Positions 5,866 to 10,211 of a stretch of 16,674 nucleotides of DNA are shown here, piece by piece. Origin of the DNA: a virus (taxonomy: Duplodnaviria; Heunggongvirae; Uroviricota; Caudoviricetes). Position numbers and translations under genes: made by a program. Each line of letters opens with the position of its first letter. The stretch's first letter is position 1. Location: positions 1 through 16,674 of IMG/VR virus record IMGVR_UViG_2778261169_000001. One strand, given 5' to 3'. Under the pieces are notes generated by a model. It saw only the letters and a program-made list of their open reading frames with translations. It was not told where the DNA came from and made no database searches.

Positions 5866-6128
5866 GTGGAAAGGATGCCGACTGGAAAGGCTAGTGGCAA
5901 TCAAGTGGAGTTTTATGGGAGATGAAACAACAATTATCAGCTTTAAAATATCAGTATAATTCATCCCATTAGATTAATGAGAGCCACATAAAGGATTTAT
6001 CAAATAGCAAAACTTAGAAATGAAATAAATCTCATAGACATTTCATCATGATATAAAATTATTTTCCGAACCCTTACCAAAGCAGATATGGGGCTAAATT
6101 ATCAAACAGCCCCACGAATATTAAAACA

Positions 6129-6707
6129 TTATTTTCCACAAACCATATTATCTATCGCAGCCATATAGGATACAAACAGATCTACATAACCACTTACGTC
6201 AGTGAGACTAATATCATTTGCATTGTCGTTATGATGAATAATGTTATTTCTCTTTACAACCACTGCATTCACAACATCCTTATTCGCATTAAATTCCGCC
6301 GAATTCAAAAGATTAACACCCAAATAAGAAAATGCCTTAATCGTCTTGTAAGGATTACCAGACAGGCTATCCGACACCTCACTTTTCTCAACCTTTAAAT
6401 CAGCATCTATATATTTCAACTCCTTATCTTTAACATCTTTTTTGACTCGCCAAAGCAAAAAATTGTGTGGCAAGCAGGCTGCTTTGAGCCTGCGATTGAT
6501 GGTATCGCAGTGCCATGTTGCAACCTCAGTCAAATACGACTCTAAATAAGTGCAGAGTGTAATAAGATACGATTTAACAAAAAAATTAATGTTCTTATTG
6601 AAGAATTCATTTTCCTCAAGGATAGCCTGTTGCTCCGTCTCCTTAATAATTTCTTTTAAGGATAAAAATAATGAACGATATCCATCATAGTATTCAGTAT
6701 TTTCCAT
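6129..6707 (-). CDS. Hypothetical protein with C-terminal R-x4-H motif (possible HEPN-type RNase), second gene of the island pair
   Basis: 192 aa from ATG 6707-6705 (the track starts 3 nt upstream at a TTG). AAGGAAG lies 6 nt upstream; the start overlaps the upstream gene's 3' end by 14 nt. Motif VVKRNNIIHHND at residues 151-162 is encoded at ~6231-6251. AT-rich codon usage. Confidence 0.6.
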   Translation of the reverse strand: MENTEYYDGYRSLFLSLKEIIKETEQQAILEENEFFNKNINFFVKSYLITLCTYLESYLTEVATWHCDTINRRLKAACLPHNFLLWRVKKDVKDKELKYIDADLKVEKSEVSDSLSGNPYKTIKAFSYLGVNLLNSAEFNANKDVVNAVVVKRNNIIHHNDNANDISLTDVSGYVDLFVSYMAAIDNMVCGK

Positions 6708-7743
6708 CAATAACTTCCTTAAGAAGTGCCACCCAACTAGCCCTACGCTTCATCACCGAACTCTTATTCTGTAGCCCACCTGATAAAGTTTTTTTGAACT
6801 CAGCACTTGAACAAAGAGTAAACCAAGCATTCCGTATTTGTTCGGACTTTTCATTTACAATATCATCATTTAACTTGCCAATTGTAGGCATTAAAATGTC
6901 ATAATGAACTAACCCTTTACGTTTTCTCCTAACTGTAGGGTTTGTAAATACATCTTCACCAAATATTTTTTCACACTTAGATAATGATGTTTTGAATCTC
7001 TCCCTCATAATATTCAGTTCATCATCTTTTAAGTCTGAAAATTTTTCCATATGATCATCCAAGAATTCTTTCAAGGAGCTATCAAAGTAATCAAAAAAGT
7101 TATCTTCATAAAATGCAAAAAAACGCAAAACTTGTTCGTCTGGCTCACGACTATCTCTTTTTACTGTAGTTGTTTCCGCCAAACCAAAATTTTTAATGGC
7201 ATCAATATTACCTAACTCTTCTAATAATTCATCAAACCCTCCCGGATATAACGCATGTCTTATTTCTTGATCAGAAAGTTTAACTGCCCCCTGATTGAGT
7301 CTAGAAAATATCTCTCTTATTAATTTTTTGGGATTTTCTTTTCTTAGAACAATGCATCTTATTGTTGTCGACTCTAACTCTGAACGTAGAGATCCTAATT
7401 CAGAAAACTTTTTCCCTTCAAGCTCTTTAAATGTAGTCATTCCCTCCAAAGCGAACTCGTCATCAAAAAATTTCTGTATTGTGGTTAATCGCTGAACACC
7501 ATCAATTACAATATGATTGCCGCTATCATCTTCTGCAAAGTAACAAGATGGAAGAGGAATACGCATTAAACAAGATTCAATGAATTTTGAAGATCGCAGC
7601 CATCCGTCCTGATCCCATTTGTACTTTCTTTGAAAGTCTGGATTCAGTTTTAGTTTGATGGGATTGGACTTCATCCTAGAACATAAAGTCTCAAATGGAT
7701 AATCTATGGGGAATAAATTCAATGTTTTATCATCGTTAGACAT
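6694..7743 (-). CDS. DUF262 (ParB-like/GmrSD N-terminal domain) protein, no recognisable nuclease domain
   Basis: 349 aa; ATG 7743-7741 with AAGGA 7 nt upstream. DUF262 hallmarks: NPDFQRKYKW (aa 35-44), IVIDGVQRLTT (DGQQR-type motif, aa 78-88, DNA ~7489-7503) and IFSRLNQGAVKLSDQEIRHALY (F-x-R-x-N...G...L...E, aa 145-166). The C-terminal ~170 aa is helical with no HNH/DUF1524-like His-Me motif that I can see. Confidence 0.75.
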   Translation of the reverse strand: MSNDDKTLNLFPIDYPFETLCSRMKSNPIKLKLNPDFQRKYKWDQDGWLRSSKFIESCLMRIPLPSCYFAEDDSGNHIVIDGVQRLTTIQKFFDDEFALEGMTTFKELEGKKFSELGSLRSELESTTIRCIVLRKENPKKLIREIFSRLNQGAVKLSDQEIRHALYPGGFDELLEELGNIDAIKNFGLAETTTVKRDSREPDEQVLRFFAFYEDNFFDYFDSSLKEFLDDHMEKFSDLKDDELNIMRERFKTSLSKCEKIFGEDVFTNPTVRRKRKGLVHYDILMPTIGKLNDDIVNEKSEQIRNAWFTLCSSAEFKKTLSGGLQNKSSVMKRRASWVALLKEVIDGKY

Positions 7744-7800
7744 GCTTCAATCCTTGTAAGTAAAAGCTTAAAAAATCAACGAGGTAGCAGACAACAACAA

Positions 7801-7878: not shown

Positions 7879-8325
7879 TCAATTTAGATGTTCAATAACC
7901 AATTTTTCAATCAACAAATTGTCTCCAAAGTCAACACCAAGCAACTGCCGTTCTGGGTATTGCACGTCCTGAGCATGTGGGTTTGGCCGGTCTTTAAGTC
8001 CGAGCTGATGAATCTGAGCAATACGTTGCACCTTGCCGGTAAACTCGACCACCGCTGCATCATCGCGGCCTCTGGCTTTCATGTAGCGGTTCGTTCGCAA
8101 CTTCTGAAACATCGTCCGCTTAATACGCCCTTTCTTCGCTCTGAGCGGCTGGCGTTTTCGCGCCTGATACGGCGTGCCATCAGGCGCTTTTTGCTGTTTG
8201 ATGCGTTGCTGTTGCGATCTGCGCAGTTGCTTTGCTATTTCAGCGGCCAGCTTACGCCGACCCGCCGGTGATATTGCCGCAATCAACCCCGCAAGTTTGT
8301 CATCAAAAGGCTTAAATTCATTCAT
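7879..8325 (-). CDS. S: Tail completion protein S (P2 gpS-like)
   Basis: 148-aa ORF (P2 S is 150 aa) directly downstream of R with an 8-nt overlap; ATG at 8325-8323; basic N-terminal half typical of gpS. Confidence 0.85.
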   Translation of the reverse strand: MNEFKPFDDKLAGLIAAISPAGRRKLAAEIAKQLRRSQQQRIKQQKAPDGTPYQARKRQPLRAKKGRIKRTMFQKLRTNRYMKARGRDDAAVVEFTGKVQRIAQIHQLGLKDRPNPHAQDVQYPERQLLGVDFGDNLLIEKLVIEHLN

Positions 8326-8785
8326 CCCACTTACTCACCAGCTCGCCATTGATATACAGCTCAGTCGGTCGCGTGACAGGCTCAGGTAATGGCGGTTCAG
8401 GCGCATAGCTGACGTGTAACGCGCCGTTTTCATCTCTGACGAGGGTGCGCTCGGTGAGTTGCAGGCTGATACTGATATCCACATTATCACCGTCGTTTAA
8501 ATCCATCTGGAATCGATAGCCCTTTTTGCGCCCCTCATCCAGCGTGCAGATATCCGGCTGGTTCTCACGCAGCCACACCGCCACCGGCACGAAAATCAGG
8601 TCAGGGTCGCCCACAAAATCGCAGACAATCACATTCAGGGTGTAATTCTTTTCATGAGACAGCGAGTCTGCGAGACGCGCATCGATATTCCCCTCATCGG
8701 CAAAGATGCGCATCATCTCGGGGTTATTCAGGATCTGAGGGACGGCGTCATTCAGCGCTTTGCGCAGGCTTTTCATTTTCTGCAT
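8318..8785 (-). CDS. R: Tail completion protein R (P2 gpR-like)
   Basis: Start trimmed to ATG 8785-8783 (MQKMKSLRKALNDAVPQILNNPEMMRIF...), giving ~155 aa as for P2 R; the ATG at 8776 is an alternative. C-terminus ...EPVTRPTELYINGELVSKWDE matches my recollection of P2 R. Confidence 0.8.
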   Translation of the reverse strand: MQKMKSLRKALNDAVPQILNNPEMMRIFADEGNIDARLADSLSHEKNYTLNVIVCDFVGDPDLIFVPVAVWLRENQPDICTLDEGRKKGYRFQMDLNDGDNVDISISLQLTERTLVRDENGALHVSYAPEPPLPEPVTRPTELYINGELVSKWDE

Positions 8786-9038
8786 CGATTTTATCCTGAC
8801 AGTCTTTGATGGTTTCGACCTTAATTGCACAGGCGGTGAGCGCGTGCTCAAGCCTCCGAATATCGGCACTCAGATCACCGTTATTGACGGGGTCGCTTCC
8901 CGGCATCGGGCAGAGACTCACCTTCGGGCAGGCGTTGTAAACAACGGGCGGCGGAGGCGCAGCCCGTTCGGATGTGCAACCGACGCACAGCATCAGGCAG
9001 CTTATCGCTGTACCAGCGGCGTAACGTCTCGTTTTCAT
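8748..9038 (-). CDS. lysC: Outer-membrane spanin lipoprotein (Rz1/LysC-like o-spanin)
   Basis: 96-aa ORF in a different frame, overlapping the 3' part of Rz and the 5' end of R. N-terminus MKTRRYAAGTAISCLMLCVGC has a signal peptide and lipobox-like CVGC; followed by Pro-rich APPPPVVYNACPKVSLCPMPGSDP. Confidence 0.75.
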   Translation of the reverse strand: MKTRRYAAGTAISCLMLCVGCTSERAAPPPPVVYNACPKVSLCPMPGSDPVNNGDLSADIRRLEHALTACAIKVETIKDCQDKIDAENEKPAQSAE

Positions 9039-9306
9039 TCATCAACCTCGTTATGGTTTCTTCCCGCTTTACCGCCTGCTCACCGGCAACGGCCAGCTCA
9101 TCACCGAGCCTGACCTGCGCATCCTCATTCGCACTTGCGATTCGCTGCGATACGGCAAGCTGATTTTTCAGCATGCCAATCGTCGTCTTTTGCTCGCTGG
9201 CAACGCGGCTCGCTTTCTCAAAAGACCGGGATAAGTTCACGTTATCGTGGCGCAGCCACAGCACCATGGCGAGCAACCCTGCCAGCAGAATCATCAGCAC
9301 TTTCAT
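8881..9306 (-). CDS. lysB: Inner-membrane spanin (Rz/LysB-like i-spanin)
   Basis: 141 aa; N-terminal transmembrane segment MKVLMILLAGLLAMVLWL followed by a charged, coiled-coil-like periplasmic region. Its ATG overlaps the endolysin stop (ATGA) and it contains the Rz1 frame. Confidence 0.8.
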   Translation of the reverse strand: MKVLMILLAGLLAMVLWLRHDNVNLSRSFEKASRVASEQKTTIGMLKNQLAVSQRIASANEDAQVRLGDELAVAGEQAVKREETITRLMNENETLRRWYSDKLPDAVRRLHIRTGCASAARCLQRLPEGESLPDAGKRPRQ

Positions 9307-9812
9307 TGCATCCCCTTTACGCAGTAAGCCCGCTCCCGCGCACGGCGGTTCTCCAGCCCTTTATTTTTTGTGCCGTTGACATACACCCAGCGGGTGAGCT
9401 GGTCGCATGCCTGCCACCACTGGTGACGCTTGATATAAGAGACCAGAGTCGACCGACAGGCCGCACCGGTTCCGACGTTAAACGCAAAACTGACCAGCGA
9501 GTTATAGACGCGCGGTGGCATATCCACCGGCACACAGACCGCGAGCCGTTGCTCGACGTTGAGCACATCGGCAATGAGATTCTCCGCCGCGCGCTGTTCG
9601 GTAATATCCCCTTTCGGGACCACCCCGGCAGTGTGGCCGATGCCCGACGTCCACACTCCCGCGCTGCACTGGTAAGGTGTCAGGCGACATCCTTCGAGGT
9701 CGGCAATCAGTGCCAGCCCCTCGGGCGAGGTGTTAAGCAGACGAAAATCAGGCACCAGTGCCGCCAGCGCCAGCACGGCGGCCACACTGCAGCGTTTAAT
9801 GATTGAGCTCAC
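9303..9812 (-). CDS. SAR endolysin, T4-lysozyme-like (GH24) fold, phage 21 R21 / P1 Lyz type
   Basis: Recalled similarity to phage 21 R: FNVGTGAACRSTL, ACDQLTRWVYVNG and RRARERAYC blocks. The N-terminus has a hydrophobic Ala/Leu-rich SAR segment (SVAAVLALAALV). Start uncertain: I prefer GTG 9812-9810 (AGGGGG 6 nt upstream); the track uses TTG at 9836. Confidence 0.85.
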   Translation of the reverse strand: MSSIIKRCSVAAVLALAALVPDFRLLNTSPEGLALIADLEGCRLTPYQCSAGVWTSGIGHTAGVVPKGDITEQRAAENLIADVLNVEQRLAVCVPVDMPPRVYNSLVSFAFNVGTGAACRSTLVSYIKRHQWWQACDQLTRWVYVNGTKNKGLENRRARERAYCVKGMQ

Positions 9813-10017
9813 GGGCAGCCCCCTTATCGGGTCCAAGTGAGGTCAGGTAGCGGTAGGTTTTACGCTTAAACCAGTAATTCGTCAGCGCGGTAAAAATGGC
9901 GCAGGCACTCCCCACATAGAGCGCCAGCTTTTCGGGGGACATAGCCCCGAAATACGCCAGCCCCACGGCCAGCCAGTAAGCGAAAAACGTCGTGATTTTT
10001 TCCACACTCAGTCCCAT
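9796..10017 (-). CDS. Holin, class II / pinholin-like (two predicted TMDs)
   Basis: 73 aa with two hydrophobic segments (ITTFFAYWLAVGLAYFGAM and LALYVGSACAIFTALTNYWF) and a basic C-terminal tail; directly upstream of and overlapping the SAR endolysin; ATG at 10017-10015. Confidence 0.7.
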   Translation of the reverse strand: MGLSVEKITTFFAYWLAVGLAYFGAMSPEKLALYVGSACAIFTALTNYWFKRKTYRYLTSLGPDKGAARELNH

Positions 10018-10211
10018 AAATTCACCGTTTCAGTTTTCGGGGCGCTGTCGGTTTCGGGCAGTTCTATTGTCGTGCCGTGCGGCAGAATAACGCCCAGCTC
10101 CGACAGCCCCGGATTCGCCCACAGCACCGTTTCAACGACGCCCTCAGTGCGCCCGTAATACCGGGCGCAAATCGCATCGAGGGTGTCACCCTGCATCGCC
10201 CGGACCTTCAT
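10008..10211 (-). CDS. X: LysM-domain tail protein X (P2 gpX-like)
   Basis: Start trimmed to ATG 10211 (MKVRAMQGDTLDAICARYYG..., ~67 aa as in P2 X), which overlaps the L stop codon. The sequence reads as a LysM-like motif. Confidence 0.8.
   Translation of the reverse strand: MKVRAMQGDTLDAICARYYGRTEGVVETVLWANPGLSELGVILPHGTTIELPETDSAPKTETVNLWD

Follow-up and report, generated by a model that had tools for sequence, protein, structure and literature searches.

Four genes on the minus strand of the window, as we call the whole 16,674-nucleotide stretch of viral DNA analysed here, very probably constitute the late-operon lysis module of an E. coli prophage that resembles phage 186 (Eganvirus type, P2 family). 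They encode a small class II holin, a GH24 lysozyme whose N-terminus is SAR-type, and the spanins LysB and LysC. We assign a probability of about 0.85 jointly to this identification and to the whole of the lysis mechanism proposed below. The open reading frame listing places every feature of the cassette on the minus strand, and the sequence and family matches indicate that the four lysis genes are intact and overlap tightly. The gene order and positions agree with those in the original prediction, which described a compact cassette with overlapped spanins. The cassette is ordinary for phage 186/P2-type prophages of E. coli, because public genomes already contain annotated copies identical to it. 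Over a 2-kb region, chromosomal prophages in 29 complete E. coli genomes were at least 99% identical, and identity was 100% in all ten matches listed for this region against complete E. coli genomes.

The upstream boundary of the module is the gene for tail protein X (10008-10211, 67 aa; PF05489, E 1.7e-27), in whose last codons the holin ATG is located, so that the two genes share 10 nt. The holin gene runs from this ATG at 10017 to a TAA ending at 9796 and encodes 73 aa. It overlaps the lysozyme gene (9303-9812, 169 aa) by 17 nt, and the TGA of the lysozyme gene and the ATG of lysB (8881-9306, 141 aa) overlap as ATGA. LysC (8748-9038, 96 aa) starts inside lysB, in the +1 frame relative to it, and shares 158 nt with it (8881-9038). 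As had been predicted for the Rz1 and Rz genes, lysC then runs past the lysB stop and overlaps the start of the tail completion gene R (8318-8785, 155 aa; PF06891), the downstream boundary, by 38 nt (8748-8785). The accompanying claim that three genes share sequence over approximately 8748-9038 did not stand. There are two separate pairwise overlaps, with 8786-8880 belonging to lysC alone, and lysB and R have no bases in common. Together, lysB, lysC and R occupy all three frames of the minus strand, and they are not chance ORFs, because their family scores are strong. For gene R, the GTG at 8869 that opens the long ORF was dropped in favor of the ATG at 8785; in the long ORF, the Pfam GpR match does not begin until residue 29, the position of this ATG, and PGAP also starts R there. 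Two antisense ORFs, 9135-9806(+) and 8760-9113(+), had no Pfam match and were taken as spurious. A scan for terminators and promoters found sites no commoner than in shuffled sequence.

The ATGA junction leaves no space between the lysozyme gene and lysB for a lysA-like ORF (~140 aa), and none was found there, as the original prediction had stated. In P2, lysA is non-essential and affects the timing of lysis. The gene is present in P2 and in Escherichia phage Midge, where the homologue is annotated as a putative antiholin, and is absent in 186 and the YpM phages. The prediction had presented the missing lysA and the overlap of lysC with R as noteworthy, and both proved to be standard; 186 lacks lysA as well, and the 38-nt overlap is shared by P2 and 186.

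The lysozyme ORF spans 9303-9836 when read from a TTG codon, and its likely start is the GTG at 9812, which gives the 169-aa protein. A Shine-Dalgarno sequence, AAGGGGG, is located six nt upstream of this GTG, 169 aa is the length of 95 of the 120 close homologues, and PGAP calls the same start; the TTG at 9836 was rejected on these three grounds. The protein matched PF00959 (GH24 / T4-type) with 126.4 bits, against a gathering threshold of 22.3 (E 1e-36). GH24 enzymes carry the triad Glu-x8-Asp/Cys-x5-Thr (PMC3556154). In the catalytic and regulatory motif of this lysozyme, EGCRLTPYQCSAGVWT (9648-9695), the triad reads Glu40-x8-Cys49-x5-Thr55, where Glu/Asp/Thr had been expected. Glu40, Cys49 and Thr55 are invariant in 121 sequences (the lysozyme and its 120 close homologues); Cys42 is kept in 120 of the 121, and Cys8 in 113 of the 114 homologues that cover its position. 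The best PDB match was P1 Lyz (1XJT, 1.2e-22), with phage 21 R21 (3HDE) at 2.1e-20. The catalytic domain is about equally close to P1 Lyz (32%) and to R21 (36%).

The N-terminal segment of the lysozyme (9750-9812), (M)SSIIKR-CSVAAVLALAALVP, consists of a basic n-region followed by 14 uncharged residues and includes Cys8. Its 13-residue core, CSVAAVLALAALV, is 46% Gly/Ala/Ser/Thr, and its hydrophobicity is weak. Transmembrane domain (TMD) and signal calls were based on hydropathy and the -3/-1 rules, and by these rules no usable signal-peptidase I site was found in the lysozyme N-terminus. The SAR-type, hydrophobic N-terminus that had been predicted for the endolysin, with no plausible site for this peptidase, was therefore upheld.

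In P1 Lyz (PDB 1XJT/1XJU), Cys13, Cys44 and Cys51 are the cysteines of the disulfide-isomerisation chemistry. The present lysozyme appears to be a SAR-type enzyme that follows this regulatory pattern and not that of phage 21 R, because it has Cys49 in the triad, Cys42 close by and the conserved Cys8 in its N-terminal hydrophobic segment. Until P1 Lyz is activated, a disulfide sequesters its triad cysteine (PMC3556154). In the 1XJT alignment, which begins at Cys13 of P1 Lyz, the E-G-C-x6-C-x5-T of the lysozyme shares columns with the 'EGC...C...T' of P1 Lyz. Both proteins have the GH24 fold and an N-terminal SAR segment with a cysteine. They are only 32% identical, P1 Lyz has an insertion of about 12 residues, and two of the other four cysteines fall outside the aligned columns. 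Unlike in P1 Lyz, the SAR cysteine of the lysozyme opens the hydrophobic stretch. With 14 residues, versus ~20 in P1 Lyz, this uncharged stretch is shorter than TMDs usually are and has the typical length of a signal-peptide h-region.

Two other readings of the lysozyme were weighed. Regulation like that of phage 21 R, in which the SAR segment refolds into the catalytic domain and disulfides play no role, would agree with the nearly equal PDB match to 3HDE and with a catalytic-domain identity that is slightly higher for R21 (36%). The triad position held by Asp44 in R21 is occupied by Cys49 here, and both Cys42 and the Cys8 of the SAR segment are conserved. Cys42 and Cys49 alone are no proof of disulfide regulation, because 29 soluble GH24 representatives also have E-x-C...C. 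Among 150 diverse representatives, those counted as SAR-like had 13 or more consecutive uncharged residues near the N-terminus; a cysteine lies within this stretch in 29/29 SAR-like proteins with a complete E-x-C...C...T motif, whereas it was found in 0/6 of the Asp type. With the triad Asp replaced by Cys and the P1-type trio of cysteines conserved, we rejected phage 21 R-type regulation as very unlikely, and the description of the endolysin as phage 21 R-like gave way to the P1 Lyz pattern of Cys8, Cys42 and Cys49, in line with the best PDB match. A cleavable Sec signal peptide, with the enzyme secreted rather than tethered to the membrane, is extremely improbable. It would account for an h-region-like stretch of only 13-14 residues after a basic n-region, and SignalP called a signal peptide in the related HP1 Lys (PMC7312051). 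Nevertheless, the candidate -3/-1 sites after residues 12, 15 and 17 are inside the hydrophobic core, and the remaining one is 12 residues past the core, within the catalytic domain. Cleavage would also cost the enzyme its conserved Cys8, and a lysozyme secreted constitutively in active form would kill the cell when late-gene expression had barely begun. A tethered, P1 Lyz-like enzyme is thus the reading that we retain.

The predicted two-TMD architecture of the 73-aa holin was borne out by two uncharged stretches of TMD length, residues 8-28 and 31-50 (21 and 20 residues), with Glu-Lys between them. The C-terminus is basic, with six Lys and Arg versus two Asp and Glu in the last 25 residues. 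The protein matched the PHROG 20 holin family (E 2.9e-20). Its Pfam scores were below the gathering thresholds for both the phage 21 S pinholin family (PF04971, 18.0 bits against 26) and the HP1 holin family (PF16080, 19.6 bits against 28.8). When the profile of the holin family was compared with phage 21 S21-71 by hhalign, the probability was 80% (E 1.4e-5), and 39% of residues were identical across 49 aligned columns that covered both TMDs; the S21-71 sequence was checked and gave a 100% match in phage 21. Thus, the holin is likely to be a remote homologue of the phage 21 pinholin. It also has the structural features of a pinholin, i.e. small size, two putative TMDs, a basic C-terminus and a gene that adjoins that of a SAR lysozyme. 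We consider the label "pinholin" plausible and go no further, because its basis is the remote homology to S21 together with the context, with no family match above threshold. Homologues with 58-67% identity are found in equally spaced cassettes, and public labels for the holin are often "hypothetical" or "primosomal protein". Some close homologues have a precomputed PF16080 hit, and their NCBI name is 'HP1 family phage holin'. Membership in the HP1 holin family was rejected, as the PF16080 score is below gathering and neither pairwise nor profile comparison detected similarity to HP1 Hol (BLASTP E 1.1; hhalign probability 0.3%).

The holin might instead be a canonical class II holin that forms large holes, with membrane depolarisation freeing the SAR lysozyme regardless, just as P1 Lyz is freed with the holin LydA. 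We regard this as unlikely, although several observations are in its favor. TMD1 of the holin (43% Gly/Ala/Ser/Thr) has a clearly higher hydrophobicity than its S21 counterpart, which exits the membrane (mean Kyte-Doolittle value of 1.22 versus 0.52), both Pfam pinholin-family matches are sub-threshold, and P1 has its SAR endolysin alongside both ordinary holins and a pinholin (PMC9025707). On the other hand, the profile homology to S21 extends through both TMDs and includes a conserved T-x2-T-N ... basic tail, the protein has only 73 aa, and a SAR lysozyme is tightly coupled to the holin in every relative examined. Furthermore, according to published work (PMC9239132), the majority of phages that have a SAR endolysin also have a pinholin. 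Small, S21-like holes are the more probable reading.

The family matches and the arrangement of the genes identify LysB and LysC as a P2-type overlapped two-component spanin pair; P2 is the type example of the 'overlapped' spanin class (PMC6139136). LysB, the Rz-like i-spanin, scored 126.4 bits with TIGR03495 (cutoff 92.75), matches PHROG 89, has the predicted N-terminal TMD MKVLMILLAGLLAMVLWL and is 53-67% identical to the LysB proteins of P2, 186, Midge and YpM. LysC, the Rz1-like o-spanin, scored 118.8 bits with NF038368 (cutoff 27) and also matches PF23793. It is a predicted lipoprotein, with the signal MKTRRYAAGTAISCLMLCVG ahead of Cys21 (MKTRR, a hydrophobic stretch and then CVG|C21). 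The lipobox CVGC is non-consensus at -3, and C21 is invariant in P2, 186, Midge and YpM, as are C14, C18 and the 96-aa ORF itself. The lipoprotein signal is lost in the 81-aa LysC that PGAP calls and in the 52-aa o-spanin calls in Midge and YpM, and these starts were rejected.

In the mechanism that we propose, Sec would export the lysozyme, and its uncleaved SAR segment would tether it to the inner membrane. The tethered enzyme would be inactive because a disulfide to Cys42 ties up the catalytic Cys49, the arrangement of P1 Lyz. The holin would accumulate and trigger, probably making small S21-like pinholes, and so depolarise the membrane. The SAR segment would then exit the bilayer, allowing the thiol of Cys8 to attack the Cys42-Cys49 disulfide, and the freed Cys49 would permit the lysozyme to degrade murein. 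Finally, a LysB-LysC complex across the periplasm would disrupt the outer membrane. We infer these steps (export, tethering, release by depolarisation and the disulfide switch) from sequence.

In phage 186 (Eganvirus), the lysis region contains orf24 (holin), P (endolysin), homologues of LysB and LysC, and N, the homologue of R. Similar to the cassette, it follows X and lacks lysA, its endolysin stop abuts the LysB start, and its 96-aa LysC has a 38-nt overlap with the R homologue; P2 has the identical LysC/R overlap. LysB, LysC and R are homologous between the two, with ~72% nucleotide identity. In contrast, the holin of 186 (98 aa) is of the P2 Y type and its endolysin is soluble and of the P2 K type, whereas the cassette has the 73-aa class II holin and the SAR-type GH24 lysozyme. 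The homology to 186 ends at 10054 and begins again precisely where lysB starts, at 9306; by this comparison, the holin and lysozyme pair is a swapped mosaic module relative to 186. The Yersinia vB_YpM_* phages (Eganvirus) and Klebsiella RCIP0057 match the window colinearly for ~2 kb at 76%, and these phages, Escherichia Midge, Erwinia EtG and Enterobacter ENT4 have the same holin, lysozyme and spanin families. Distant metagenomic relatives also carry the compact cassette. In Midge, the genes are annotated as 'holin class II', 'SAR endolysin (similar to P1 lysozyme)', i-spanin and o-spanin. An extra ~430-465 bp, absent from the window, separates the lysozyme gene from lysB in Midge and probably in EtG and ENT4. 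In Midge this stretch is the lysA-like 'putative antiholin' gene, and the EtG and ENT4 matches span ~2.4 kb in two pieces.

Two further systems have a comparable layout. In the late operon of HP1, a P2-like phage of Haemophilus, a small holin gene overlaps that of a P1-Lyz-like SAR lysozyme, and a LysB-like gene follows; the function of hol and lys as pinholin and SAR endolysin was demonstrated experimentally (PMC7312051). HP1 Lys is 30% identical to the lysozyme and has both the EGC...C motif and the SAR-segment cysteine, while HP1 Hol is not detectably similar to the holin. The HP1 cassette follows the tail tube gene, and that of the window follows X. Phage 21 shares the gene order of holin, SAR lysozyme and spanins, but R21, itself related to the GH24 enzymes, has the triad Asp and no Cys-based control where the lysozyme has Cys49, and the spanins of the window are of the overlapped P2 type, unlike those of phage 21.

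Beyond correct annotation, the significance of the cassette is slight. A common 186-like prophage of E. coli has a P1-Lyz-type lysozyme and an S21-related small holin in place of the Y/K pair of P2 and 186, a routine mosaic exchange of lysis modules. In practice, what it offers is corrected starts and names, in particular GTG 9812 for the lysozyme and a LysC length of 96 aa instead of 81 or 52.

An in-frame GTG at 10005, codon 5 of the holin gene, is a possible second start. It aligns with the start of S21-68, around which the S-M-D-K-I-S-T of phage 21 is matched by S-M-E-K-I-T-T in the holin. That the gene carries a dual start homologous to S21-71/68, with ATG as codon 1 and either GTG or ATG as codon 5, seems to us quite doubtful. 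The presence of Met5 in most holin homologues hints at such a start, as does the origin of the codon-1 ATG from an X leucine codon, TTA or the rare CTA, before TGG. Against it, position 5 is Leu or Thr in some homologues, and conservation of M-G-L may merely reflect the overlapping C-terminus of X. If the dual start were real, the holin gene would make its own antiholin with the extension MGLS, which is uncharged, in contrast to the positively charged MKS of S21-71. This could explain how cassettes that lack lysA manage without a separate antiholin, and the antiholin mechanism would be independent of an added N-terminal positive charge.

The genes of the region are all encoded on the minus strand and follow the P2 and 186 late-operon order: L, X, holin, lysozyme, LysB, LysC, R, S. 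The holin gene runs from ATG 10017 to TAA 9796 and encodes 73 aa, with its start codon inside the final codons of tail gene X (…TTA TGG GAC TGA). The lysozyme gene (169 aa) starts at GTG 9812 and stops by 9303, LysB, the Rz-like i-spanin, extends from ATG 9306 to 8881, and LysC, the Rz1-like o-spanin, occupies the +1 frame from ATG 9038 to 8748. The lysozyme TGA and the LysB ATG overlap as ATGA at 9306-9303, leaving no room for lysA, while LysC shares 158 nt with LysB and continues past the LysB stop to overlap R by 38 nt. Coordinates, order and overlaps agreed with the original prediction, apart from its statement that three genes share sequence: across 8748-10017, LysB and R share no sequence, and at no base do three genes coincide. 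For R, ATG 8785 is the most likely start: it is where the Pfam match to GpR sets in, it gives the 155-aa length of the P2 protein, and it is also chosen by PGAP. The lysozyme ORF is open as far as TTG 9836; this candidate start was outweighed by GTG 9812, which has AAGGGGG upstream at a 6-nt spacing, is kept in phages Midge and vB_YpM (YpM), yields the 169 aa found in 95/120 close homologues, and is also called by RefSeq/PGAP.

The cassette genes are real. The lysozyme matched PF00959 (E 1e-36), LysB matched TIGR03495 (126 bits; cutoff 92.75), LysC matched NF038368 (119 bits; cutoff 27) as well as PF23793, and the holin matched PHROG 20 "holin" (E 2.9e-20). The flanking genes R and X belong to PF06891 and PF05489, respectively. 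No family match was found for the long antisense ORFs of the region. The gene classes and order that had been proposed were upheld; the proposed subtype of regulation and one catalytic residue were wrong.

The solved structures nearest to the lysozyme are those of P1 Lyz (1XJT, 1.2e-22, 32% identity) and phage 21 R (R21; 3HDE, 2.1e-20, 36% identity). Because both are among its best relatives, with similar identities, describing the catalytic domain as R21-like is fair at the family level. The motif itself is instead of the P1 Lyz type: E40-G-C42-R-L-T-P-Y-Q-C49-S-A-G-V-W-T55 (Glu-x8-Cys-x5-Thr) matches AEGCRRDPYMCPAGVWT of P1 Lyz column for column, whereas R21 has Asp in place of Cys49. The expected Glu/Asp/Thr triad is therefore Glu40/Cys49/Thr55, and these residues are invariant across 120 close homologues. 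Cys42 is kept in 120/121 lysozyme sequences; of 114 homologues covering the Cys8 position, 113 have this Cys. The N-terminus, MSSIIKR-C8-SVAAVLALAALVP-D, fits the predicted SAR segment: its n-region is basic and is followed by an uncharged stretch of 14 residues. Gly, Ala, Ser and Thr make up 46% of the 13-residue hydrophobic core, and candidate signal-peptidase -3/-1 sites occur only within the core or 12 residues past it, inside the catalytic domain.

In a diverse sample of 150 representatives of 50%-identity clusters, proteins with an N-terminal run of 13 or more uncharged residues had a Cys within that run in 29/29 cases of the E-x-C…C…T type and 0/6 of the Asp type; the 29 are not all independent, some being fragments of one subfamily, and correspond to ~10 distinct SAR sequences. 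The two catalytic-region Cys also occur in 29 soluble representatives. Judged from these comparisons, the mark of the regulated type is the Cys trio, not the catalytic-region pair. P1 Lyz likewise has a Cys in its N-terminal stretch, the 1XJT alignment starting at Cys13, and the isomerisation scheme attributed to Xu et al. 2005 reportedly involves Cys13-Cys44 and Cys44-Cys51. By analogy, the tethered window lysozyme would be locked by a Cys42-Cys49 disulfide, which Cys8 would resolve after release; Cys8, placed where the segment borders the cytoplasm, would be shielded from periplasmic oxidation until then. In P1 Lyz, the triad Cys is kept in a disulfide until activation (PMC3556154), and the SAR domain is modified via the Dsb system (PMC9239132).

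As predicted, the 73-aa holin has two putative TMDs, uncharged stretches at residues 8-28 and 31-50 with Glu-Lys between them. Its C-terminus is basic (6 K+R vs 2 D+E in the last 25 residues), and its predicted topology is class II. From this topology and a profile match to phage 21 S21-71, we consider a pinholin the likeliest reading, with a probability of roughly 0.65-0.7. A profile of 17 full-length homologues matched S21-71 (query 100% identical to phage 21) with 80% probability, E 1.4e-5 and 39% identity over 49 columns, from S-M-E-K-I-T-T (S21, S-M-D-K-I-S-T) through both TMDs to L-T-N-Y-W-F-K-R (S21, L-T-N-L-Y-F-K-I). The reading is tempered by Pfam holin matches below threshold (HP1 holin family, 19.6 vs 28.8 bits; phage 21 S family, 18 vs 26) and by a TMD1 more hydrophobic than that of S21 (mean Kyte-Doolittle 1.22 vs 0.52). 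No likeness of the holin to HP1 Hol itself was found. Within 10005-10017, which spans the starts of codons 1 and 5, the codon-1 ATG is formed by a Leu codon of X together with TGG; the Leu codon is TTA here, whereas Midge and YpM use the rare CTA. Codon 5 lines up with the S21-68 start; it is GTG here, ATG in most homologues, and Leu or Thr in some. Codons 1 and 5 are a possible dual-start motif, aligned with the S21-71/68 starts and carrying an uncharged MGLS extension, whereas S21-71 is an antiholin by virtue of positive charge.

Records of this holin family in NCBI and UniRef are widely mis-named 'primosomal protein' (homologues P0121, P0127, P0141, P0149), and the identical RefSeq prophage labels the holin 'hypothetical protein'. 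Certain genomes of E. coli, Citrobacter and Enterobacter encode in-frame fusions joining its first ~57 residues to the C-terminus of S, of LysB or of another sequence (homologues P0149, P0150, P0171, P0165). These derive from the prophage by deletion and lack both lysozyme and spanins, which fits decay or domestication of the prophage.

Identity to the P2, 186, Midge and YpM counterparts is 53-67% for LysB, which carries a TMD at its N-terminus, and 65-69% for LysC, in which Cys14, Cys18 and Cys21 are invariant within "CLMLC(V/A)GC-T". The LysC signal (MKTRR, a hydrophobic stretch, then CVG-C21) fits the lipobox consensus except at position -3. Lipoboxes that deviate from the consensus have been described in spanins, and P2 is the type example of the "overlapped" spanin architecture (PMC6139136). 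Annotated o-spanin starts vary, from 81 aa beginning at Met16 in PGAP to 52 aa in Midge and vB_YpM (compared: window 8748-9038; comparison loci L004 4308-4553 and L001 1686-1844; Midge locus L002 2117-2275). P2, 186, Midge and YpM all retain the 96-aa ORF with its MK..-hydrophobic-CVGC signal; the shorter starts would remove the lipoprotein signal and are probably wrong.

P2 carries lysA between K and lysB, and its lysC (96 aa) shares 146 nt with lysB and 38 nt with R. In phage 186, which lacks lysA, the endolysin gene adjoins that of the LysB homologue, and the LysC counterpart (96 aa) shares 38 nt with the R homologue, just as in the window. Thus, the missing lysA and the overlaps, which had been singled out as notable, are not unusual; they are standard in 186-like phages. 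In contrast to the window, Midge has an extra 430-465 bp between lysozyme and LysB, a lysA-like "putative antiholin"; EtG and ENT4 probably do as well, since their matches are split in two and cover ~2.4 kb. In genomes without lysA, LysB starts with an ATGAAA (window 9295-9306) that coincides with the ATGAAA starting Midge lysA (L002 1289-1300; also compared, L002 1702-1760), so that lysA presence or absence looks like a clean indel re-using the start codon and the ATGA overlap with the lysozyme stop. Nucleotide homology to 186 ends at 10054, within X, and resumes exactly at 9306, the LysB start codon; on this alignment, holin and lysozyme are an exchanged mosaic module of ~750 bp (9307-10054).

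Of 5,426 complete E. coli genomes, 29 contain chromosomal prophages with at least 99% identity to the 2-kb region, and 227 have some match; identity was 100% in all 10 E. coli matches listed (e.g. WCHEC005784, AR_0137). Closest to the whole window is Enterobacter phage ENT4 (85%), followed by 186/PSP3-like Salmonella phages (~77%). Over the lysis region, several Yersinia pestis phages assigned to Eganvirus and Klebsiella phage RCIP0057 are colinear with the window at 76%. Cassettes of 58-67%-identical holin homologues in unrelated assemblies have spacing identical to the window's (X 67 aa, holin 73, lysozyme 169, LysB 141, R 155, S 149). The existing annotation of Midge names a class II holin, a P1-like SAR endolysin, an i-spanin and an o-spanin. 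In HP1, hol deletion blocks lysis, beta-galactosidase leakage is absent, lys alone lyses E. coli, and lysis is sensitive to azide (PMC7312051); HP1 Lys has the EGC…C motif and a Cys within the SAR segment, as in the window. Given the Midge annotation and the HP1 precedent, the cassette belongs to known families, has a known arrangement, and has already been sequenced and for the most part annotated.

Elsewhere in the window, a low-GC insert (32-36% vs 52-60% for the phage) lies in 5900-7800, where it separates the S homologue from the V homologue at the site that orf30 holds in P2. Its minus-strand genes (6694-7743 and 6129-6710) encode a DUF262/GmrSD_N protein (PADLOC NsnA 6.6e-80, PD-T4-2_A 9.5e-43) and a HEPN RiboL-PSP protein, and it is probably anti-phage defence cargo. 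At this site, relatives have V straight after S or another cargo gene (DUF4238).
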